IMG/VR virus record: IMGVR_UViG_2737471829_000009
Strand: one strand, 5' to 3'
DNA: 31,211 nt
Source: a virus
Lineage: Duplodnaviria; Heunggongvirae; Uroviricota; Caudoviricetes
How positions within the stretch are numbered: position 1 is the stretch's first letter; each line of letters begins with the position of its first letter. The notes under the pieces are model-generated. The model was not told the DNA's origin. It searched no databases and worked only from the letters and a program-made list of their open reading frames with translations. Shown here one piece after another: positions 1 to 31,211 of this stretch. Position numbers and translations under genes: made by a program.

Positions 1-222
1 TCACAGCCAGGGCATTTGATGCTGACCGGTCATCGTCGGGTGCGGTGGAGCCGGTACGACTTCTCCCGGCGAAACGATGAAACGCTCAACGGTTTCTGTC
101 GTGACAAAAGTACAACTGCAGTTGATGTTTGTGCACTGATGATACCGCTCTTTTGTGGTGTCAGAAAAATAGCGACTCGTGCGGGCATGGGCGGCGTAAT
201 GGCATTTCGGGCAATGAAACAT
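1..222 (-). CDS. ogr: Ogr late-gene transcriptional activator (C4 zinc finger)
   Basis: Translation MFHCPKCHYAAHARTSRYFSDTTKERYHQCTNINCSCTF has the C-x2-C-x22-C-x4-C pattern and closely resembles P2 Ogr as I recall it. Track ORF starts at a GTG; trimmed to the ATG at 222. Confidence 0.85.
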   Translation of the reverse strand: MFHCPKCHYAAHARTSRYFSDTTKERYHQCTNINCSCTFVTTETVERFIVSPGEVVPAPPHPTMTGQHQMPWL

Positions 223-1941: not shown

Positions 1942-4383
1942 TCAGTCGAGTCTCATACTGGATCGCTGGCGCGCACGTGTCTCGCGGTCAAGTTTGTCGA
2001 CGGCGTCACGAAGCTGGCGGTCAAGGTCACTGCCCGGCGCGACCCCGCCCTGCAGGTTGATGTTGTATTCGCTTTTGCTCTGGTCGATATAAGAACGGCC
2101 AGCGGGTGCGGTGACCGGCTGATACGCCTGATACCCGCCATAACCTGCAGTCGCAGGGATATACCCACCATTCGGGGACGCCTTATTCGCTTTCGCTGCG
2201 GTCTGGTCGAGGTCGCTGGATTCTTTTTTGATAACGCCGAGTTTTTCCAGCAGCCAGCCGACCTTGCCGCTCAGGCTGTTAAACATCTTGAGCGGCATCA
2301 TCAGCGCATCAGCCAGCGCCTGACCAAAAGTAACGCCGACATTTTTGCAACTGTTGAGCGTGTCCTGCGTGGCTTTCACCGGCGCAAGCAGGTCTTTAAA
2401 CCACTGGCAGACGACACCCAGCTTTTCAGCGATGGCATCAAACACCGGCGCAAGTGGGGTAAACATGTCCCCCACCGGTGCAAAGGCGGCTTTCAGTCCC
2501 TCCACCACGCCCGAGAAGAATGCACCGAGCGGCTCCCAGTATTTACGAATCAGCAACGCACCGGCCACCACTGCACCTGCTACCGCCAACACCGGCAGGC
2601 TGATTGCGCCAATGGCCGTGACTATCGCGCCGCCGACCGTACTGAAAACCACACCGAGCACGCCAGCCGCCGCAGTGATGGCATTAATCCCCATCACCAC
2701 CGGCCATGCGACAAGGCCAATCCCGCCCATCACACCAATCAGCGCCAGCGCACCCCCGACCACCACGCCGATAGTGGTCGCCAGCCCCTGATTTTTCTGG
2801 ATCCAGCCGTCGAGCCTGAGCACATATTGCGTGGCCGTCTGCGTCAGCTTACGCAGTGATCCCTCCTGCTGATCAAACAGGTCAGTGCCGACCGCCTCAT
2901 AGGCAGACTGAAACTCTTTAAAGTCGCCGCCGAGGTTATCCTGCATCACCTTAACCAGTTCCTCAGTCTTACCGTCCGAGGCTTTAAACGCGGCGGTGAG
3001 CTGGTCGAGCTTGCCGCCTGATGCAGCGGCCATCAGAACGGCGGCCGCCGAGCTGGCCTCTTCACCGAAAATGGTTTTCATGTATTCGGCTTTCTGACCC
3101 GTTCCGAGATTGTTTTTCTCAAAACTGCGCTGCATTTCCTTCAGGATGGAAAATATCGGACGCGTATTGCCTTTGCTATCTGACGTTTTAATGCCGAGCT
3201 CTTTGATGGCGTCGTACGCTTTACCGGTTGGTGCCTGCAGGCGACTCAGAACGGCACGGCTCCCTGTACCCGCCATCGAGCCGGTGATTTTAGAATCGTG
3301 CAGCGCCCCCACCATCGCGGCGGTTTCTTCAATACTCACCCCGGCATTTTTCGCCACCGGCGCGGCATAGGTCAGCGCATCGCTCATCCCGTCAAAGTCA
3401 GCGGCGGTTTTGTTCATCGTCATCGAGAGAACATCACCAATATGCGCGACTTTATCGTTAGAGAGCTGGAAAGCAGACTTCATGCCTGTCAGCAGCGCGG
3501 CGTTTTCTTCCATCGTGCGCTTGTTCGACAGCGCCATATTCAGCGTGACCGGCGTCGCCGCCTGAATAGCCGCCGCATCGCCGCCGCTTTTGGCGATGAT
3601 AATCTGCGCTCCCGCCGCATCATCGGCAGAGGCAGCGGTATTGTCACCGAGCTGGCGCGCCTGTTTACGCAGCGCCTGCATTTCGGGCGACTGTTTGTCG
3701 ACACCGAGCACTGCCTGCAGCTCAGAGTTTTTCTGTGCAAATTCATAACCCGGCGTCAGCAGCTTAACCCCGGCCATGGTTCCTGTTGTCGCAATACCGA
3801 CACCGGCCGCGCCAGCCGCCGCCATGCTACCGGCAAGCGATTTACCGGCCTGATATCGCTCTTTCACCCGGCTTAACTTTGCCTGCTGTGCGCTGACTTT
3901 CGCCAGTGCCTCACGCTGACGATTGAGCTGCGCAGTCGTCTCACTGATGCGCGATTTAAGCCCCCGCTCATCATTTGCCAGATTACGGGTATTAATCCCG
4001 ACAGCACCGAGCTCGCGTTGCTGGCGTTTAACAGACTCAGTGAGGCTGTTGTATTTCGTCTGCAGCCCGTCGGCGGCACGCTTTGCCGATTCAAGCACCT
4101 GCGCCTGCGCACGTGTCGGGCGCTCGGTGTTTTTAAACTGCGTGGCAAGGGCTTGCGCTTCCTGTTTCGCTTTCTCAAGCGAGTGACCAGTCACGGCAAG
4201 CTGTGCGCTGGCTTTGCGGAATCCGTCAATACGGGACGCCTGCGCGTTAAGTTCGCGCAGGCTTTTCTGTGAATTGCGGATATCACCAGACAGGGATTTG
4301 CTGGCGTTCTGAATCGCTTTAAGCGGGCGGCTTGCCCGGTCGACTGCGTTCAGCAGCACCTCGATTCTGACGTTATTGCTCAT
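1942..4383 (-). CDS. T: Tail tape measure protein gpT
   Basis: 813-aa protein with a coiled-coil N-terminal half, Gly/Ala-rich hydrophobic central segments, and position after E/E', typical of tape-measure proteins. Confidence 0.9.
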   Translation of the reverse strand: MSNNVRIEVLLNAVDRASRPLKAIQNASKSLSGDIRNSQKSLRELNAQASRIDGFRKASAQLAVTGHSLEKAKQEAQALATQFKNTERPTRAQAQVLESAKRAADGLQTKYNSLTESVKRQQRELGAVGINTRNLANDERGLKSRISETTAQLNRQREALAKVSAQQAKLSRVKERYQAGKSLAGSMAAAGAAGVGIATTGTMAGVKLLTPGYEFAQKNSELQAVLGVDKQSPEMQALRKQARQLGDNTAASADDAAGAQIIIAKSGGDAAAIQAATPVTLNMALSNKRTMEENAALLTGMKSAFQLSNDKVAHIGDVLSMTMNKTAADFDGMSDALTYAAPVAKNAGVSIEETAAMVGALHDSKITGSMAGTGSRAVLSRLQAPTGKAYDAIKELGIKTSDSKGNTRPIFSILKEMQRSFEKNNLGTGQKAEYMKTIFGEEASSAAAVLMAAASGGKLDQLTAAFKASDGKTEELVKVMQDNLGGDFKEFQSAYEAVGTDLFDQQEGSLRKLTQTATQYVLRLDGWIQKNQGLATTIGVVVGGALALIGVMGGIGLVAWPVVMGINAITAAAGVLGVVFSTVGGAIVTAIGAISLPVLAVAGAVVAGALLIRKYWEPLGAFFSGVVEGLKAAFAPVGDMFTPLAPVFDAIAEKLGVVCQWFKDLLAPVKATQDTLNSCKNVGVTFGQALADALMMPLKMFNSLSGKVGWLLEKLGVIKKESSDLDQTAAKANKASPNGGYIPATAGYGGYQAYQPVTAPAGRSYIDQSKSEYNINLQGGVAPGSDLDRQLRDAVDKLDRETRARQRSSMRLD

Positions 4384-6621: not shown

Positions 6622-6715
6622 CCGTTTAACTCCGTGGTTAAGGGGTGCAACTATTTTCTGTTGTGTAAGCGACAAGCGCGATGAAACGGCGTTGGCGGGG
6701 ATACAACACAACAAG

Positions 6716-6740
6716 CAAAAAGCCCTCCGGGTGGAGGGCT
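6716..6740 (-). terminator. Rho-independent terminator after the tail-fibre operon
   Basis: Plus strand reads AAAAAGCCCTCCGGGTGGAGGGCT: an 8-bp GC-rich stem (AGCCCTCC/GGAGGGCT) with a 4-nt loop, followed on the minus strand by a T-run, directly 3' of G. Confidence 0.6.
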
Positions 6741-6744
6741 TGCG

Positions 6745-11314: not shown

Positions 11315-11738
11315 GGGGAAAGGATGCCGCCGGGCAAGGCCAACGGCAATCGGGCGGGGTTTTGTTAGCTATGAAACAACAACTATCCACTAAGGCATAC
11401 GATCTTATCCAGACTTGGCAGTTTTGATGGGGATGAAAGCAGAACGAAGCTGTGAACAATACACAAAAAGTTGAAACTCATAGTTTTAACAATTATTATC
11501 GCAAAACCAATCGATACGAGTTAATCTAACAAATATTGATTCATGTTAATTTATGTCGTCATACCCACCTAAGGTAATAACACAGATGCTTACAACACCA
11601 ATAAATAACATTGAAGAAGCCTATTAAAATGATTAAATTAAAAAATTATTATTCAAGCATGTATGTTCATGTTTGAAACTCAGCACTTTTGAAAAATAGA
11701 CATTGGACGAAGTTTGGTTAGTAAAAGAGAGGTTAACT

Positions 11739-13370
11739 ATGACAAACAATCCTTTTGTAGATTTTATTGAATTTCTAACTAATAAACATGGCGAAGAAGT
11801 TTGGGTTACTGTTTACAAGACGGAAGAGATCAAGAACACTGATCATGACGGCGGGATGTATTGTGCATTAGTCAGCAAAGAAAAAACTGAAAAAGCAATG
11901 AATCAGGCTGGTTGGGATTTGATGATTGGTAGTGGTGGACCTGGTATTTGCACATCATATCAAGATGGGAAAAGCATAAATACATATTATAAAAATTCAG
12001 ATAATGGTTTTCTCAGGCTTATTCTTGTTCGTGATTTCCATGGTAGAAAAGAAAAATATATAGAGATCCTTGAAGAGTTTCGTCTTTTTCACAATTTATA
12101 TTATGATAATAAAAGTGGTTCATACTTTAGCTTTGATGACTCCGGTGATGAAATCGAAGTAATCAAAGTGCAAAGCAATGAGGTAAAAATCCGTAGGAGA
12201 TATCTACATTCTTTTATGGCCGCCAGTCAAATGAATCTCCTTCTTTATTTTGAGTTAACGAGACACTATAATCATAATTTGACCTTTGCATGCAATGAAA
12301 AAAACGAATCAACCATATACACTATTTATTCAGGGAAATCTTACTCAAAAGGATATATATCTTTCTCAAGAATCATGGGAAAAAAAATAATTAAATGTGA
12401 GTCAATAGACAAGTGTAACTCATGGCCATTTGAATCAAAAAAAACATATCAAGAATTTATTATAGGTGGCGACACTGACGAACCAATAACTTTTTCATGC
12501 AATCCGGATAAATTAGCTAATTATTTTGGTGCCAACCCAGAAGCCCCGCATTATTTGACTCCTGTGTTTTTTAAAAAGGAAGTAATGCAAAAATATTACA
12601 ATTCCTCTGACTATAGTATTACCGATGGGCATCTTTATAGAAAAGGTGCATGGGATCTTCGATTCGATAATAACTCACCTAATCATATATCAGTTTTCTT
12701 AGGTGATCTTGGCAGGGATTTACCTGAGAAAGAACAAATTTACTGGAAAAGTTTTAATTTAATCCCTGACGGTAGAAAAATTAGCAAAACAAATTTTGAG
12801 CGTAGTTTTTTAGGGCGTGTCTCCGACGCAGAAAACCCTGAGCATAAATTTAAAAATAAATTCAAATCACTACAGAAATACTGGAGCAATCGGTATAAAT
12901 GGGATCTATTCCTACCTTTATCCGAGAAAGATGAGCATTTTTTCAACTCATTAAGATCAATGCTTACGAAGGAGCAGTCGGAATTTGACGCACAGGTATT
13001 GGCGTTAACGAAAGTCACTATTGATTCAATTAATGTTAAATCTCTTAGAAATCACCTCAAAGTTACTGATGCAAGCATAAAATCAATAGGGTTAATGGAG
13101 AGTCTTCTTGATAGATTACACTCGCCAAACACATCAACACTAGTAAGTCTTATGCGAGGTATTCAATCAGTAAGATCCACCGGCGTTGCACATAGAAAAG
13201 GTACTGACTACGAAAAAACAATGTCAAAGCTGAATATTAACCATGATGATTATCAGAGAGAATTTGATCAATTACTATTGGGCATGGTTTTTCTATTTGA
13301 AGAAATAATGCGATTGGATGCTGAGAAAGGTGATGAAAAAACCGAGTCAACTACTGATAAACAATTGTAG
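11739..13370 (+). CDS. Hypothetical AT-rich cargo protein (543 aa) with a C-terminal HEPN-like R-x5-H motif; candidate abortive-infection/defence effector
   Basis: Only long plus-strand ORF in the late region, AT-rich with A/T-rich codon usage. Start trimmed from the track's TTG (11703) to the ATG at 11739, which has an AAGAGAGG RBS. C-terminus contains VRSTGVAHRKG; the rest of the protein has no motif I recognise. Confidence 0.75.
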   Translation: MTNNPFVDFIEFLTNKHGEEVWVTVYKTEEIKNTDHDGGMYCALVSKEKTEKAMNQAGWDLMIGSGGPGICTSYQDGKSINTYYKNSDNGFLRLILVRDFHGRKEKYIEILEEFRLFHNLYYDNKSGSYFSFDDSGDEIEVIKVQSNEVKIRRRYLHSFMAASQMNLLLYFELTRHYNHNLTFACNEKNESTIYTIYSGKSYSKGYISFSRIMGKKIIKCESIDKCNSWPFESKKTYQEFIIGGDTDEPITFSCNPDKLANYFGANPEAPHYLTPVFFKKEVMQKYYNSSDYSITDGHLYRKGAWDLRFDNNSPNHISVFLGDLGRDLPEKEQIYWKSFNLIPDGRKISKTNFERSFLGRVSDAENPEHKFKNKFKSLQKYWSNRYKWDLFLPLSEKDEHFFNSLRSMLTKEQSEFDAQVLALTKVTIDSINVKSLRNHLKVTDASIKSIGLMESLLDRLHSPNTSTLVSLMRGIQSVRSTGVAHRKGTDYEKTMSKLNINHDDYQREFDQLLLGMVFLFEEIMRLDAEKGDEKTESTTDKQL

Positions 13371-13451
13371 AAATAAGATTACCTCAACGTATTTTTGCAT
13401 TAGATAAATAAGCACTCACACACTTTAAACTCATAAAAACATATTAAATAG

Positions 13452-13471
13452 CGCCCTAACAAAATAGGGCG
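13452..13471. terminator. Hairpin between convergent genes (cargo ORF and S)
   Basis: CGCCCTA-ACAAAA-TAGGGCG (7-bp stem) in the 119-bp gap; the flank is A/T-rich on the minus strand, consistent with termination of the S-containing late operon. No strong T-run on the plus strand. Confidence 0.4.
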
Positions 13472-13489
13472 TCACTTAATCAGCTAATT

Positions 13490-18741: not shown

Positions 18742-19596
18742 TCAGCAGTTGGTCAGCAGCTCGTCACCGGTCCCGCCTTTCGATTTCTCGCGGCGCGGCT
18801 GGCGATAGCTTTCGGTGTTATCGAGGGAGCTTTTCAGGGCGTTAAGCGCCTGCGCGCTTTGCGTGGTCTGGCTGGTCACGTCCTGCTTTAGCTGTGCGAA
18901 GGCGGTTTCCAGCTCAGTGACGCGCGTCTCGGTGGCGGTCAGGTTGGTCTGTACCTGCTCAGAGACGGCGGTCACCGCCTCATGCACATCAGCAAGACGG
19001 GAGTCATCGCTGACCTGTTTGCGACTGAAAATCGATTTGACCTTGTCGGTCAGGCTGTTGAGCATGGTGTCGGGGACATCTTCGAATTCCAGCTCAGCAA
19101 GGGAGGCCACCGAGAAGAGGTCGCCCGGCTGGTCTTTTTTACCGGCGAGCGGGTTCTGCGCAGCACGGCTGCAGAATTCGAGGTATTCCGTGCCGAGGCT
19201 TGCCGGGTCATCGGTCACGGCGAGACCAATCAGATAGCATTTACCGTTATTTGAGAAATTCGGGCGAATTTCCATGGAGGTGTAAACCTTCTGACCGGCA
19301 CGCACCATGCTCACCAGTTCATCAAGCGGGGCAATCCTGGCAAACAGCGCCTTTTTGCCGTTCAGCGCAGAGTCATCACTGATGATTTCCGCTTTCACTT
19401 CGGTCACATCGCCGTAGCGTTTAAACGGACTGTCAGGCCAGAGGCTTTTGATGTGTTCGAGGTTAATACGGCAACCATAGACGCGCGGGTCAAAGGTATC
19501 CGCCATGTCCTGAATGTCATCACCGTTGATGACACGACCATCGCAGGTGTCACCCTCGACGCCGATGCGAAACCATTTAGAAACTTTCTTTGCCAT
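18742..19596 (-). CDS. O: Capsid scaffolding protein gpO
   Basis: 284-aa protein, first gene of the O-N-M-L operon and divergent from P; C-terminal half is Gln/Thr/Ser-rich coiled-coil-like. Confidence 0.85.
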   Translation of the reverse strand: MAKKVSKWFRIGVEGDTCDGRVINGDDIQDMADTFDPRVYGCRINLEHIKSLWPDSPFKRYGDVTEVKAEIISDDSALNGKKALFARIAPLDELVSMVRAGQKVYTSMEIRPNFSNNGKCYLIGLAVTDDPASLGTEYLEFCSRAAQNPLAGKKDQPGDLFSVASLAELEFEDVPDTMLNSLTDKVKSIFSRKQVSDDSRLADVHEAVTAVSEQVQTNLTATETRVTELETAFAQLKQDVTSQTTQSAQALNALKSSLDNTESYRQPRREKSKGGTGDELLTNC

Positions 19597-19762
19597 TGTT
19601 CAGGTGTCCTGATGTTGGGTTTTCGGTTCGGGTGTAGTGTCCCGACTCCGCCCCGCATCAGCCACCGCTTGCAGACGTGTCCCCCCTGACACAACAGGGG
19701 GTTAGCGATAATGCCCCGCTATTTCCTTAGCCTTGCCCCTTATTCACTGACACGAGGCAACC
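19597..19762. promoter_or_regulatory. Divergent late promoter region (P-Q leftward, O-N-M-L rightward)
   Basis: 166-bp gap between divergent O and P. Contains a GC-rich dyad CCCCCTG-ACACAA-CAGGGGG at about 19682..19701 inside GTGTCCCCCCTGACACAACAGG. P2 late promoters are Ogr-dependent with upstream dyad elements. Confidence 0.5.
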
Positions 19763-21532
19763 ATGACCATTTCAACTGACCTCTCCCTTTTGCACGACCC
19801 GCGACGACAGGCGCGCCTGCTGTTCTGGCAGGGGTTTTCCGTGCCACAAATCGCCGACACGCTGCAGGTCAAGCGCCCGACCGTGCAGAGCTGGAAACAA
19901 CGTGACGGCTGGGAGGAAACCGCCCCGCTTAACCGCATGGAATCCACGCTCGAGGCGCACCTGATTCAGCTTTATGCAAAGCCTGACCTGACGCCGCATG
20001 ATTTCAAGGTCGCTGATTTTCTGTCACGCCAGATGGAACGGCTCGCGCGTGTCAGCCGCTACGGCCAGACCGGAAACGAGGCAGATTTAAATCCCAACAT
20101 TGCCAGCCGCAACAAAGGCGACCGGCGCAAGCCAAAACGTAATTTTTTCAGCGATGAGGCTATCGAAAAGCTCGAAGAGATTTTCTTCGATCAATCCTTT
20201 GAGTATCAGCTCAACTGGCACAAGGCCGGTATCGCGCACCGTATTCGCCACATCCTCAAATCGCGCCAGATTGGCGCAACATTCTACTTTGCCCGCGAGT
20301 CACTGCTGCGCGCCCTGAAAACCGGGCAAAACCAGATATTTTTGTCGGCCAGTAAGACGCAGGCTTACGTGTTCCGAAAGTACATCATCGCCTTCGCGCG
20401 CATGGTCGAGGTCGACCTGTCAGGCGACCCGATTGTCATCGGCAACAACGGCGCAGAACTGATTTTTCTCGGGACCAATTCCAACACAGCGCAGAGTCAT
20501 AACGGCGACTTGTATGTCGATGAAATCTTCTGGATCCCCAACTTTCAGAGACTGCGCAAAGTCGCCTCGGGGATGGCGTCGCAGTCCCACCTGCGCACCA
20601 CCTACTTTTCAACCCCCTCGACGCTGGCACATGGTGCTTATCCGTTCTGGTCAGGTGAGCTGTTTAACCGGGGACGCAGCAGCGCCGCCGAACGTGTCGA
20701 CATCGATATCAGTCATAAAGCGCTGGCCGGGGGCGTGCTGTGCCCGGACGGACAGTGGCGGCAGATTGTCACCATCGAGGATGCGCTCGCCGGGGGATGC
20801 ACGCTGTTTAATCTGGATCAGCTGAAACAGGAAAACAGCGCCGATGATTTCCGCAACCTCTTCATGTGTGAATTTGTCGACGACAAGGCATCGGTATTCC
20901 CGTTCGAGGAGCTGCAGCGCTGCATGGTCGATGCGATGGAAGAGTGGGAGGACTTCGAGCCGTTTTCCGACCGTCCGTTTAACTGGCGTCCAGTGTGGAT
21001 TGGCTATGACCCGTCACATACCGGCGACAGCGCAGGCTGCGCGGTACTGGCTCCGCCACTGGTTGCCGGTGGCAAGTTCCGCATCCTTGAGCGTCACCAG
21101 TGGAAAGGCATGGATTTTGCGACGCAGGCCGAGGCCATCCGCGAGCTGACCGAAAAATACTGCGTCGAGTATATCGGCATCGATGCGACCGGCATCGGCC
21201 AGGGGGTTTACCAGCTCGTGCGCTCGTTCTTCCCGGCGGCGCGCGCCATTCGCTACACGCCGGAAATGAAAACCGCGATGGTGCTGAAAGCAAAAGACAC
21301 CATCAGACGCGGGTGTCTGGAATACGACGCCGGGGCAACCGACATCACACAGTCATTTATGGCTATCCGAAAAACCATGACCAGCAGCGGGCGCAGTTCC
21401 ACCTATGAGGCCAGCCGCAGTGAAGAAGCCAGCCACGCGGATATCGCATGGGCAACCATGCACGCCCTGTTAAACGAGCCACTTTCCGCCGGTAGCGGTA
21501 TGCATTCAACGTCAATTCTGGATATTAACTGA
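19763..21532 (+). CDS. P: Terminase ATPase (large) subunit gpP
   Basis: 589-aa protein divergent from O and followed by Q, the P2 arrangement for the terminase large subunit. Confidence 0.9.
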   Translation: MTISTDLSLLHDPRRQARLLFWQGFSVPQIADTLQVKRPTVQSWKQRDGWEETAPLNRMESTLEAHLIQLYAKPDLTPHDFKVADFLSRQMERLARVSRYGQTGNEADLNPNIASRNKGDRRKPKRNFFSDEAIEKLEEIFFDQSFEYQLNWHKAGIAHRIRHILKSRQIGATFYFARESLLRALKTGQNQIFLSASKTQAYVFRKYIIAFARMVEVDLSGDPIVIGNNGAELIFLGTNSNTAQSHNGDLYVDEIFWIPNFQRLRKVASGMASQSHLRTTYFSTPSTLAHGAYPFWSGELFNRGRSSAAERVDIDISHKALAGGVLCPDGQWRQIVTIEDALAGGCTLFNLDQLKQENSADDFRNLFMCEFVDDKASVFPFEELQRCMVDAMEEWEDFEPFSDRPFNWRPVWIGYDPSHTGDSAGCAVLAPPLVAGGKFRILERHQWKGMDFATQAEAIRELTEKYCVEYIGIDATGIGQGVYQLVRSFFPAARAIRYTPEMKTAMVLKAKDTIRRGCLEYDAGATDITQSFMAIRKTMTSSGRSSTYEASRSEEASHADIAWATMHALLNEPLSAGSGMHSTSILDIN

Positions 21533-22551: not shown

Positions 22552-22577
22552 AGCCATCATAGATGGCTTTTTTTTTC
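22552..22577 (+). terminator. Rho-independent terminator after Q (probably bidirectional)
   Basis: AGCCATC-ATA-GATGGCT hairpin followed by a T9 run on the plus strand, 8 nt after the Q stop; it sits between convergent Q and the cargo operon. Confidence 0.65.
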
Positions 22578-23184
22578 AGAAGCCATAGTAATGAAATCTT
22601 AATAGACTTATTATCTTTTCGGCATCACTTACTTCAGAGGAAGGAGCAGATATATTATTTGCATGTCTCGCACCCTTATGGGCTACGGAACCTCTTCTTG
22701 TGCCATAGCTATCTAAGCTTGTTAAGAGAATTGGATCAATTGAACTTTCATCAAAACCGCAAAATAATGCCAACGGTATAAATGAACCTTTTTTAATCCC
22801 ATTGTTTTTCTTAACTTTCAATTCCGCACAATTTATTATCTTTAAGACCGCAGTCTTGAAATCGGTATCATCGAAAGGTTTTGTTATTGAGAGAATCTCG
22901 TCAACCTGATATGCTATTGCTAGTATATTTTTAAAATAAATCGTATTGTAACCATTAGCCACAACATCGTTTTTAATTTTACTTAACATTTCTATCGCTT
23001 TAGCTTCTATATACTCCTCAAGCTCGGCATGAACCAATAATCTATAAGCAGCAATGTTGAGAGTATCAAAATTATAGCCAATAGGATCATTGGCTTCATT
23101 CTTTAACTGTCGATTCATATATTTGCGCTTTAATTTATTGACTCTTTTAGTCATATCATTAAAGAGCTTACTTGCTTTTGGCAT
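22576..23184 (-). CDS. Hypothetical small cargo protein (202 aa) with a HEPN-like R-x5-H motif; putative effector partner of the DUF262 protein
   Basis: AT-rich ORF whose ATG directly abuts the upstream stop (TAA-ATG), with an AGAAGGA RBS. Lys-rich N-terminus; C-terminal TRRGSVAHKGARH motif. Confidence 0.7.
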   Translation of the reverse strand: MPKASKLFNDMTKRVNKLKRKYMNRQLKNEANDPIGYNFDTLNIAAYRLLVHAELEEYIEAKAIEMLSKIKNDVVANGYNTIYFKNILAIAYQVDEILSITKPFDDTDFKTAVLKIINCAELKVKKNNGIKKGSFIPLALFCGFDESSIDPILLTSLDSYGTRRGSVAHKGARHANNISAPSSEVSDAEKIISLLRFHYYGF

Positions 23185-24324
23185 TTACAAGATCCTTCTT
23201 GTATTTCCATCATACTGCATACCCAAAACATGCGCCAAAGAGCGTCCCCACATATCGATTCGAGTATGTGTTGCGAACGTTGTTTTTGGGGTTTTTTCGA
23301 CGGAATCACGATAATCTTGATCCATACAGAGATCTTTGAAAGCATCCTCTACAGCAGAAGCATTTTGCAATGCTGCCTGTGAAACATTCTGGTCGCTAAA
23401 GAATCGAGCAATACAATCAAAAATAGCTCTATTAATCACTCTTTCGTATTTTGTTCCAAGCCATTTTTTAAATGAATTGTCACCAAAAATTTGTACTGTA
23501 GTATCTAAGGCTAGATTTAAAGAATTTAGAGCATCAACGACTTCTTGCTGATAATTAAGCCATCCCTTCTCATAAAACTCTACAATTTCATCAAGGAACT
23601 CTTTGAAGTTACCACGGTACTCTTCTACACGCTTATTATACGCAATGAAACGTAATACAAGCTCAGAGTCACGCATTCTTTTATCAAGTGATTGACCAAA
23701 GAGAGCATGAAACTGATTGCTTTGAGATAAATATGTTTCTATCTCATCAAGGAGTTTACCACCAATAAGTGCTTTACGCAGTTCTTGAGGCGAAAGAGGA
23801 AGGCTACCACTGTTTAATCTGTAGAATATCGCATAAAGGAAGTTTTCGTCTTGCCAACTTCTTATCACTGTTGACCGCAAGGTGCTGTTATCGAGATACT
23901 CACGATCTTCACTTGGGAGTTCGCTATATTTCTGCCCATTAAGCTCTGGTCTAATATCTAAACCTTTAAGTTTAAAATCGTCAGCCAAAAATTCATTAAT
24001 TGCCATAAGCCTCTGCTTTCCGTCAATTACAATGAATCGTCCTCTATGATCTTTTTGTTCAGCAAGTACAATATTTGGTACTGGCATACCCACAATAATA
24101 GATTCAATTAATCTGCTTTTGCGCTTATCGTCCCAAGCACCACGTCTTTGAAAGCTGGGCTGAAGATCAATATTTCCTTTTCTTATCTGGCTATCAATCG
24201 TTTCAATTGTCCAATCTGCATTCATTACCACAGATTCTTTAAATGAAATTGAAGTATTTAAATCATCTTCATCTTCTTGCTGATTATCAGGGATTTGTAG
24301 TTCATATTGATCAATATTAGACAT
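23185..24324 (-). CDS. DUF262 (ParB/Srx-like NTPase-nuclease domain) protein, 379 aa
   Basis: AT-rich ORF with a GAGGTG RBS. N-terminal LQPSFQRRGAWDDKRKSRLIESIIVGMPVPNIVL...FIVIDGKQRLMAINEF matches the DUF262 signature (FQR...W, DGQQR-type motif) as I recall it. No HNH/DUF1524-like motif in the C-terminal half. Confidence 0.75.
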   Translation of the reverse strand: MSNIDQYELQIPDNQQEDEDDLNTSISFKESVVMNADWTIETIDSQIRKGNIDLQPSFQRRGAWDDKRKSRLIESIIVGMPVPNIVLAEQKDHRGRFIVIDGKQRLMAINEFLADDFKLKGLDIRPELNGQKYSELPSEDREYLDNSTLRSTVIRSWQDENFLYAIFYRLNSGSLPLSPQELRKALIGGKLLDEIETYLSQSNQFHALFGQSLDKRMRDSELVLRFIAYNKRVEEYRGNFKEFLDEIVEFYEKGWLNYQQEVVDALNSLNLALDTTVQIFGDNSFKKWLGTKYERVINRAIFDCIARFFSDQNVSQAALQNASAVEDAFKDLCMDQDYRDSVEKTPKTTFATHTRIDMWGRSLAHVLGMQYDGNTRRIL

Positions 24325-29773: not shown

Positions 29774-30073
29774 ATGTCAACGCAGACAAGCGAGCGATTA
29801 AAGCTCATCCGTGAATCTGAGCGCCTGAAAATGAAGGAAGCGGCTGAATTAGCTGGCATCAATTACACCACGTACGCAGGTTATGAATCAGGTAAGGCCA
29901 TGATGTCTCTGGAAAATGCCAAGAAGTTTTTTAAGGTTCAGAGGTTCAGAAAATATCGCGATTGGTTCATGTTTGATGAGATTGATCCCGAAGCCGGACA
30001 GATAGCTCCGGCACTCGCACACTCTGGGCAAGATTTAACAACCTCGCAGCACTCAGGCCAAAAGACTGGTTAA
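29774..30073 (+). CDS. C: Immunity repressor C (HTH)
   Basis: 99-aa protein, the same length as P2 C, with an N-terminal HTH-like segment (MKEAAELAGINYTTYAGYESG), divergent from cox and upstream of int. Confidence 0.8.
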   Translation: MSTQTSERLKLIRESERLKMKEAAELAGINYTTYAGYESGKAMMSLENAKKFFKVQRFRKYRDWFMFDEIDPEAGQIAPALAHSGQDLTTSQHSGQKTG

Positions 30074-30215
30074 CCATTCACCGCGCACATGTTTATTACA
30101 AAATTTGTTTACTTGTTAACAAGTATGGCGAGCAACGTAACCACTGGAGACTAAAACCGCAAAAAGTAGCGTCAAAGATACAAAAGAAGAATTTATACAC
30201 CGCATGGAGAATCTT

Positions 30216-31211
30216 ATGAGCATTAAGAAACTCGATGACGGTCGATATGAAGTGGACGTAAGGCCGCAGGGTGCAGACGGAAAACGCATCCGGCGCAAAT
30301 TTAACACAAAGGGCGAGGCGCAAGCCTTTGAACGCCATGTACTGGTTAATTTTCACAATAAAGAGTGGATTGAAAAACCAGCAGACCGAAGAAGAATTAC
30401 CGAACTTTTAGAACGTTGGTGGATATATCACGGCAAGATGCACCCCCGCGGGGATATCGAAAGGGGTCGACTTACAACAATAGCAGCAAAGTTTGAGGAA
30501 ATGGGTATAACCAGAGCTGATCAACTTACCAAAAAATCGATAACCGATTACCGGGTGTTGATGATGAATGAAGGGTTGAAACCTGCCAGTGTAAACCGAC
30601 ATATGGCAATGATGAGCGGCGTATTCACAAAACTGATTGATGCTGAGGAATACAACTGCCCTAATCCATTCAGGGATATCAAGCGGTTGAAAGAGGCTTC
30701 TTTCGAAATGTCTTTTTTGTCAGGCGAGGAAATTGAAGCTCTGTTAGCCCGCCTGGATGGCGACGAGCGCAGCGCCGTTCTAGTTTGTTTGTCAACCGGC
30801 GGCAGGTGGGGTGAGGTTTCTGACTTAAAAGCCGAGCACATCATAAATCAGATGGTTACATTCATGAAAACCAAAAACGGGAAGCACAGGACAATCCCCC
30901 TTTCGCTTGACCTAATAAAGCGAATCAAGAAGAAAAACTCAGGCAGGCTCTTTAACGCCAGTTACTACAAAGTACGTACCGCCTTAAAAGAGGTTAAACC
31001 CGAATTACCAGATGGACAGGCCGTACATGTTTTGAGGCACACATTTGCCACACATTTTATAATGAATGGAGGTAACATAATCACATTGCAGCGCATATTG
31101 GGTCATTCAAACATACAGCAAACTATGACCTACGCACATTTCGCGCCGGATTTCCTGCAAGATGCAGTGACACTAAATCCGGTGTCTAGAATGTCCATAA
31201 TGCGTCCATAA
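30216..31211 (+). CDS. int: Tyrosine integrase (P2 Int family)
   Basis: Start trimmed to MSIKKLDDGRYEVDVRP (GGAGA RBS). C-terminal HVLRHTFATHF...LGHSNIQQTMTYAHF carries the tyrosine-recombinase signature. The stop codon is the last 3 nt of the window. Confidence 0.9.
   Translation: MSIKKLDDGRYEVDVRPQGADGKRIRRKFNTKGEAQAFERHVLVNFHNKEWIEKPADRRRITELLERWWIYHGKMHPRGDIERGRLTTIAAKFEEMGITRADQLTKKSITDYRVLMMNEGLKPASVNRHMAMMSGVFTKLIDAEEYNCPNPFRDIKRLKEASFEMSFLSGEEIEALLARLDGDERSAVLVCLSTGGRWGEVSDLKAEHIINQMVTFMKTKNGKHRTIPLSLDLIKRIKKKNSGRLFNASYYKVRTALKEVKPELPDGQAVHVLRHTFATHFIMNGGNIITLQRILGHSNIQQTMTYAHFAPDFLQDAVTLNPVSRMSIMRP

Follow-up and report, generated by a model that had tools for sequence, protein, structure and literature searches.

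What does a conspicuous GC-rich inverted repeat do in the gap between two divergently transcribed late operons of a temperate phage? The repeat lies between positions 19597 and 19762 of the window, by which we mean the whole stretch of DNA analysed here (31 211 nucleotides), a complete P2/186-like prophage. A reading made from the letters of this DNA alone (hereafter the sequence-only reading) had taken the repeat for a strong dyad recognised by an Ogr-type late activator, shared by both operons and also able to form a stable hairpin. Our analysis leads to a more conventional answer. The regulatory reading is correct as to the type of element and its location, but recognition was assigned to the wrong dyad. 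The gap is, with a probability that we put at roughly 85%, a standard P2-family bidirectional late-control region, in which the GC repeat is incidental and has no function as a hairpin.

Gene context of the divergent gap

The 166-bp gap is bounded on one side by a GPO-family scaffold gene, the O homolog (18742-19596, minus strand; Pfam Phage_GPO, 3.8e-100), and on the other by the gene for the large subunit of terminase, the P homolog (19763-21532, plus strand; Pfam Terminase_6N/6C/5), after which comes the portal gene. The divergent arrangement described earlier is therefore correct. The ORF list, the Pfam matches and alignments to 186, PSP3, ENT4 and P2 place both late promoters, together with a predicted activator site shared between them, in the gap at 19597-19762. 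Matches to the gap region were found in 150 phage records and in 205 E. coli genomes, and a near-identical element (99.7% over the gap region) is present in E. coli S42, where it lies between pflB and pflA. A divergent gap of this architecture is already known, being annotated in the P2 and 186 records, and is ordinary biology.

The prophage also encodes the protein expected to act at such a region, a 73-residue late activator of the Ogr/B/Delta family with a C4 zinc finger (1-222, minus strand; Pfam Ogr_Delta PF04606, E 6e-20), which is 74% identical to 186 B and 66% identical to P2 Ogr. A scan of 19450-19900 found no sigma-70 consensus promoter in the gap, as would be expected if both promoters depend on an activator.

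Predicted activator site and promoter geometry

The two promoters were positioned by aligning the region from -80 to +35 of the annotated starts of P2 PP/PO and of 186 p12/pV with the window, an alignment that needed no gaps. It predicts transcription starts at about 19740 for the P operon (plus strand) and at about 19629 for the O operon (minus strand). The putative Ogr/B activator site, GTTGTGTCAGGGGGGACACG, which was placed by the same ungapped alignment relative to the P2 and 186 starts, occupies 19676-19695 and reads TGT(19693-19691)-N12-ACG(19678-19676) on the minus strand. Its position matches that of the B-protein site annotated in 186 and that of the core of the activator site of P2, and its centre (19684.5) falls 55.5 bp from each of the two starts predicted by the alignment. 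Its most distinctive part is the core ACACAACAG (19689-19697, plus strand), the complement of CTGTTGTGT, which was recognised by its conservation in 48 related gaps and represents the promoter-proximal half-site of PO. This core, the most conserved block of the gap, corresponds to the loop of the hairpin together with the initial CAG of the right arm.

On the P side, the hexamer TTAGCG (19702-19707, plus strand; about -38 to -33) was assigned as the -35-region block of the promoter from its position, which is that seen in P2 PP and 186 p12, and from its conservation. Downstream of it lies the -10-like hexamer TAGCCT (19728-19733, plus strand), which is identical at -12 to -7 of P2 PP and 186 p12 and is kept in nearly all relatives. 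On the O side, the -35-region block is GGTGGC (19666-19661, minus strand, read as GCCACC on the plus strand; about -37 to -32), assigned from conservation and from its position in the alignment, and alignment to P2 PO and 186 pV gives GACACT (19641-19636, minus strand) as the -10-like hexamer at -12 to -7; P2 and close relatives have GAAACT at this position. In the alignment to P2 late promoters that the sequence-only reading had called for, the gap matches PP/PO (and 186 p12/pV) column for column, the predicted FI site lies at a distance like that of PF, and the candidate V site is at the position of PV.

The site was also compared with TGT-N12-ACA, a partial dyad quoted in PMC3931495, after Christie & Calendar (1985) and Julien & Calendar (1995), as the consensus of the four P2 late promoters. 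The predicted site agrees with it at five of six positions, the distal half ACG keeping two of the three bases of ACA, and the site of P2 PO itself, TGT-N12-CCA, likewise scores five of six. The exact pattern is absent from the gap and occurs three times in the window, which is fewer than chance would give. As a search pattern it is too strict, for the sites of P2 itself depart from it. The gap site was not among the top 15 matches of a weight matrix derived from five annotated sites of P2 and 186, which speaks against it; this matrix is over-fitted on the spacer columns, and the assignment was made by alignment.

The GC-rich inverted repeat

The repeat itself is real. It is contained in GTGTCCCCCCTGACACAACAGGGGG (19677-19701), in which the left arm CCCCCTG (19682-19688, plus strand) and the right arm CAGGGGG (19695-19701, plus strand; about -45 to -39 of PP) form a perfect inverted repeat of 7 bp around a 6-nt loop, ACACAA. 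The left arm falls inside the N12 spacer of the predicted activator site, while the 4 nt that separate this site from TTAGCG are the GGGG of the right arm. The centre of the hairpin (19691.5) is consequently 7 bp to the right of the centre of the predicted site.

The description of this dyad as strong did not survive a comparison with shuffled sequence. Of 5000 dinucleotide-preserving shuffles of the gap, 5.7% contained a perfect repeat of 7 bp or more with a loop of 3-10 nt, and a scan of the window found 44 such repeats, some of them counted repeatedly at different loop lengths. The 7-bp repeat is not beyond chance expectation. This frequency could be taken to mean that the repeat is pure chance, unrelated to any functional element, and we regard this as the least probable of the readings considered here, given that no part of the gap is better conserved than the block in which the loop and inner stem fall, and that this block is annotated as the activator site in P2 and 186. 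From this coincidence it follows that the repeat is anchored on a functional element, while its outer arms are probably incidental.

The flanks of the repeat had been read as TGT...ACA half-sites. The TGT (19678-19680) does precede the left arm, but the ACA lies in the loop (19689-19691 or 19691-19693), and the resulting spacing is N8 or N10, instead of N12. A TGT-N10-ACA element was considered and rejected, as this TGT is TGC in prophages 90-94% identical to the present one and in most relatives; the TGT at 19678-19680 appears from this comparison to be a young substitution.

The FI and V late promoters

Similar dyads had been anticipated upstream of V (about 11360-11380) and FI (about 6650-6700), and what is present at these positions is the Ogr-type site and not the GC-rich dyad. 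The predicted activator site of the FI (tail sheath) promoter, GTTGTGTTGTATCCCCGCCA (6712-6693, minus strand), has the form TGT-N12-CCA and is the top match of the weight matrix. About 56 bp separate its centre from the predicted start, which was placed by means of the -10 sequence GAAAAT (6658-6653, minus strand) that P2 PF also has. The candidate site of the V (baseplate) promoter, TTGTTGTTTCATAGCTAACAAAAC (11382-11359, minus strand), is the third-best match of the matrix; its proximal GTTGT is clear and its distal half degenerate, and its distance to the V start codon is that of the annotated P2 PV site. The half-site GTTGT(G/T)T is common to the FI promoter, the V promoter and the gap. The window contains three copies of TGTTGTGT, where 0.76 would be expected, and each lies in a late-promoter region. 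In phage ENT4, GTTGTGCTGTCACTTCCCCA stands at the place equivalent to the FI site of the window, and GTTGTG is kept at both the FI and the V promoters. No GC-rich inverted repeat was found at either the FI or the V late promoter. Conservation at other late promoters and in relatives, on which the sequence-only reading was staked, is therefore a property of the Ogr-type half-site, and the GC-rich dyad does not share it.

Two further observations were made around the FI promoter. A second, inverted copy of the TGTTGTGT half-site at 6659-6666 (plus strand) abuts the FI -10, about 40 bp downstream of the FI site and, relative to the predicted start, at about -20 to -13. This copy is present in Enterobacter phage ENT4 and absent from P2 PF and 186 pJ, and is reminiscent of the second Delta-binding sites near -18 of P4 promoters. 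Adjoining the FI activator site, immediately upstream of it, a 9-bp GC-rich perfect inverted repeat (AAGCCCTCC / GGAGGGCTT) at 6720-6741 is followed by TTTTT on the minus strand and is the likely counterpart of 186 t45, terminating the V-to-G operon.

Conservation of the site and of the repeat among relatives

A scan of 185 579 species genomes with the terminase protein yielded 80 loci, 54 of which have a recognisable core, and these 54 together with P2, 186, PSP3 and ENT4 provided 58 sites for comparison, the window included. At the homologous position 15 sites have no stem, six have a stem of 1-2 bp and 18 a stem of 3 bp; longer stems are of 5 bp (11 sites), 6 bp (four), 7 bp (the window alone) and 8 bp (three), so that a stem of at least 5 bp is found in 19 of the 58 gaps, or about one third. 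P2 has the 3-bp stem, and the stem is 0 in both 186 and PSP3.

An ungapped alignment (A2) of 48 distinct related P-O gap sequences separated the constrained from the free positions. Columns A33, C34, A35, C37 and A38, which make up the loop and the CA next to it (ACA.CA), are invariant, as are T44, T45, A46 and G49 of TTAGCG and C4 and A6 of the O-side -35 block, with A31, C32, A36 and G39 conserved in at least 90% of the sequences. Variability is among the highest in the columns next to the CTG and CAG triplets, and the outer four pairs of the stem are formed in only 12, 14, 21 and 24 of the 48 sequences (25-50%). Pairing over the 7-bp helix amounted to 56.3% of cells against 56.2% in shuffles, with 268 of 500 shuffles scoring as high, and on these pair counts a reading of the repeat as a structure under selection was rejected. 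The covariation score was 0.045 against a shuffle mean of 0.056, and no covariation was seen among the 48 gaps. The related gaps vary by substitution alone and their spacing is fixed, as promoter geometry would lead one to expect.

The two arms also vary independently when individual lineages are inspected. The four bases after CAG are GGGG, GGGC, GGCT, CACC or CGCC, depending on the relative. CCCCTG is often accompanied by the non-complementary right flank CACC, as in Buttiauxella, Dryocola, Serratia and Phytobacter, and such relatives have 3-bp stems, while GGGG also occurs with non-complementary left flanks. Among distinct variants the association of CC with GG is weak (12, 13, 3, 12; Fisher p = 0.10). 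Closer to the window, the exact 7-bp repeat is common to E. coli prophages at least 98% identical over a 561-base query around the gap, and E. coli prophages 90-94% identical carry GTGCAACCCCTG with a 6-bp stem and with TGC replacing TGT at 19678-19680. In one relative (L006), which has a 99% identical terminase, the stem is 5 bp and even the core has become ATACAACAG.

These data bear directly on the claim that the GC-rich dyad is what the activator recognises. For this to hold, the palindrome CCCCCTG-N6-CAGGGGG would itself have to be the dyad of the Ogr-type activator of this lineage, whose specificity would have shifted from that of P2 and 186. The palindrome does overlap the homologous site, the canonical distal half-site is degenerate here, and extended stems recur in a sub-lineage of Enterobacter, Citrobacter, Kluyvera and E. 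coli prophages. However, P2, 186 and PSP3 lack the arms, and so do the FI and V promoters of the prophage itself: FI has a canonical TGT-N12-CCA site with no GC palindrome, and none is present at V. The palindrome would, moreover, be centred at -48.5 of PP and -62.5 of PO, in place of about -55.5 of both, and the relatives with the CACC right flank have 3-bp stems, the arms varying freely and without covariation. The 74% identity of the activator to 186 B also speaks against such a shift. We therefore consider a change of specificity to the GC palindrome very unlikely, and the site of recognition is instead predicted to be TGT-N12-ACG, with its centre 7 bp to the left of that of the hairpin.

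Is the repeat a hairpin or a second binding site?

The other role proposed for the repeat was that of a stable hairpin, and here the physical part of the claim stands while the functional part finds no support. As single-stranded DNA the repeat folds at -7.7 to -7.8 kcal/mol, with a z of about -2.5. An intrinsic-terminator scan does not call it; the stem lacks a T tract and is followed by GGGGGTTAGCG, and a terminator reading was rejected on this ground. Rfam gave no family match anywhere in the window, and with it the reading as an RNA family was also dropped. Since the repeat lies upstream of both predicted starts, it should be absent from either late mRNA.

A role in duplex DNA was likewise considered: by extruding a cruciform or hairpin, or by binding another dimeric factor, the repeat might modulate the two late promoters or insulate them. 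The folding energy of the single strands speaks for it, as does the behaviour of the 6-bp version of the repeat: in 87 IMG/VR contigs the 18-mer CCCCTGACACAACAGGGG is found in exactly one copy per contig and invariably in the context GCCACC...TTAGCGA, so that it is both single-copy and fixed in position. This fixity is explained by the conserved half-site embedded in the repeat, and the next pair position beyond the 18-mer is free, with A opposite G, C or T. Extrusion of a cruciform from duplex DNA is unlikely with arms as short as 7 bp around a 6-nt spacer. Against either form of this proposal stand the lack of a T tract, of covariation and of an Rfam match, the position of the repeat outside the transcripts from the predicted starts, and the independent occurrence of the two arms in relatives. 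The repeat at 19682-19701 is the only perfect CCCTG-N6-CAGGG in the window, and the other matches of this kind have one mismatch and all lie inside genes. A structure formed at the site would, furthermore, compete with binding of the activator. We regard a cruciform or a second factor as highly improbable.

It could also be envisaged that the extended GC palindrome is a selected addition in the Enterobacter/Citrobacter/E. coli sub-lineage, either as the site of a second factor or as a supercoil-sensitive structure that competes with Ogr, and thereby sets the balance or timing of P-Q versus O-N-M-L expression. We give this idea very little credence, although the GC arms may carry a mild, lineage-specific benefit. 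Were the arms to modulate both promoters, they would add only a minor detail to a regulatory circuit that was worked out in the 1980s and 1990s.

A stretch within the terminase gene (19816-19834, CTGTTCTGGCAGGGG) shows 87% complementarity with positions 19683-19697 in the region of the activator site, and together with the GGTTTTCC that follows it is called terminator-like in a simple scan. The long-range complementarity between 19683-19697 and 19820-19834 is probably a coincidence of coding sequence and was set aside.

Other features of the prophage

An AT-rich island (11315-13489), with a GC content of 0.32-0.36 against 0.54-0.61 in its flanks, lies between the S and V homologs and occupies the slot of the non-essential orf30 of P2. 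It contains an ORF of 555 residues on the opposite strand (11703-13370, plus), which had no Pfam or PADLOC match and whose equivalent in E. coli S42 is labelled 'hypothetical' by PGAP.

Just after the portal gene, a two-gene cassette (22576-24324, minus strand) encodes a 379-residue DUF262/GmrSD_N protein (Pfam 1e-26; PADLOC NsnA 2.9e-76 and PD-T4-2_A 9e-39) and a 202-residue protein with weak, sub-threshold matches to HEPN_RiboL-PSP and PD-T4-2_B. The cassette is probably anti-phage cargo, and its place next to the cos end is reminiscent of the location of old and tin in P2.

The immunity and integration module (29774-31211 in the window; 29914-31811 in L087) is P2-like and comprises a Cox-family protein, a 99-residue helix-turn-helix repressor and an integrase. 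Despite this P2-like module, the late region is closer in sequence to those of 186, PSP3 and ENT4.

A model for the gap and its comparison with known systems

In the model that we favour, a single Ogr/B-type site (TGT-N12-ACG, 19693-19676) would lie midway between two back-to-back, activator-dependent promoters and would serve both the P-Q operon (terminase, portal) and the O-N-M-L operon (head, lysis). The activator would bind this site in duplex DNA and recruit the host RNA polymerase through its alpha subunit, as family knowledge of P2 Ogr suggests. The loop and inner stem of the hairpin (CTG ACACAA CAG) would then be the conserved half-site itself. The outer runs of C and G would occupy two weakly constrained stretches, namely the N12 spacer and the 4 nt before the -35-region block of the P promoter, and would have become complementary by chance in this lineage. 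A conserved half-site flanked by weakly constrained bases can thus give rise to a conspicuous GC hairpin in a promoter gap. What the locus contributes is an annotation of late control, comprising the shared predicted site, two predicted starts, the FI and V sites and the activator gene, and its significance beyond that is small.

One close parallel is the PP/PO region of P2, whose shared site is that of Ogr or of P4 Delta. The window has the same gene pair (P terminase and O scaffold), a predicted single site midway between the promoters, and an Ogr-family activator encoded in the element. The P2 record AF063097 annotates a single 'activator binding site; pO, pP promoters' at 3057-3087, and its mapped starts at 3016 (PP) and 3127 (PO) are each 55.5 bp from the centre of TGT-N12-CCA. 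Together with the 186 record, this annotation agrees with the earlier proposal that one Ogr-type site is common to the divergent P-Q and O-N-M-L operons, a sharing that we likewise predict for the window from its alignment. P2 also has the core CTGTTGTGTCAG, the TAGCCT -10-like hexamer of PP and the TTAGCG block. The two differ in the spacer and distal half of the site, which are TGT-GTCAGTGATAAG-CCA in P2 and TGT-GTCAGGGGGGAC-ACG in the window, and in the length of the palindrome: in P2 it is a 3-bp CTG/CAG mini-palindrome, whereas in the window it extends through the C and G runs to 7 bp.

Phage 186 provides a second precedent. Its record U32222 shows pV, p12 and a single B-protein protein_bind feature at 3798-3817 (GTTGTGTGGGCGGTTGTCCA), with the legend 'activation of pV and p12'. 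Positions 19400-19960 of the window share about 74% identity with 186, in which the B site occupies the corresponding position in the same orientation. Alignment of the gap with that of 186 requires a single 1-nt gap, beside the scaffold start codon; the stretch between the activator site and the P start codon aligns without any. In contrast to the window, the 186 site GTTGTGTGGGCGGTTGTCCA is without any inverted repeat (stem 0), and the immunity region of the window is P2-like (Cox plus C-type repressor), not 186-like.

The layout recurs in the P-O gaps of uncharacterised P2-like prophages from Enterobacter, Citrobacter, Kluyvera and E. coli, which read GCCACC...GTGCAACCCCTG-ACACAACAG-GGGG-TTAGCGA and have stems of 5-8 bp; examples are those of E. 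coli S42, EC11 and A15 and of Enterobacter phage ENT4. These gaps differ from that of the window in their outer pair positions, which vary freely (A opposite G, C or T), and in that TGC mostly replaces the TGT of 19678-19680.
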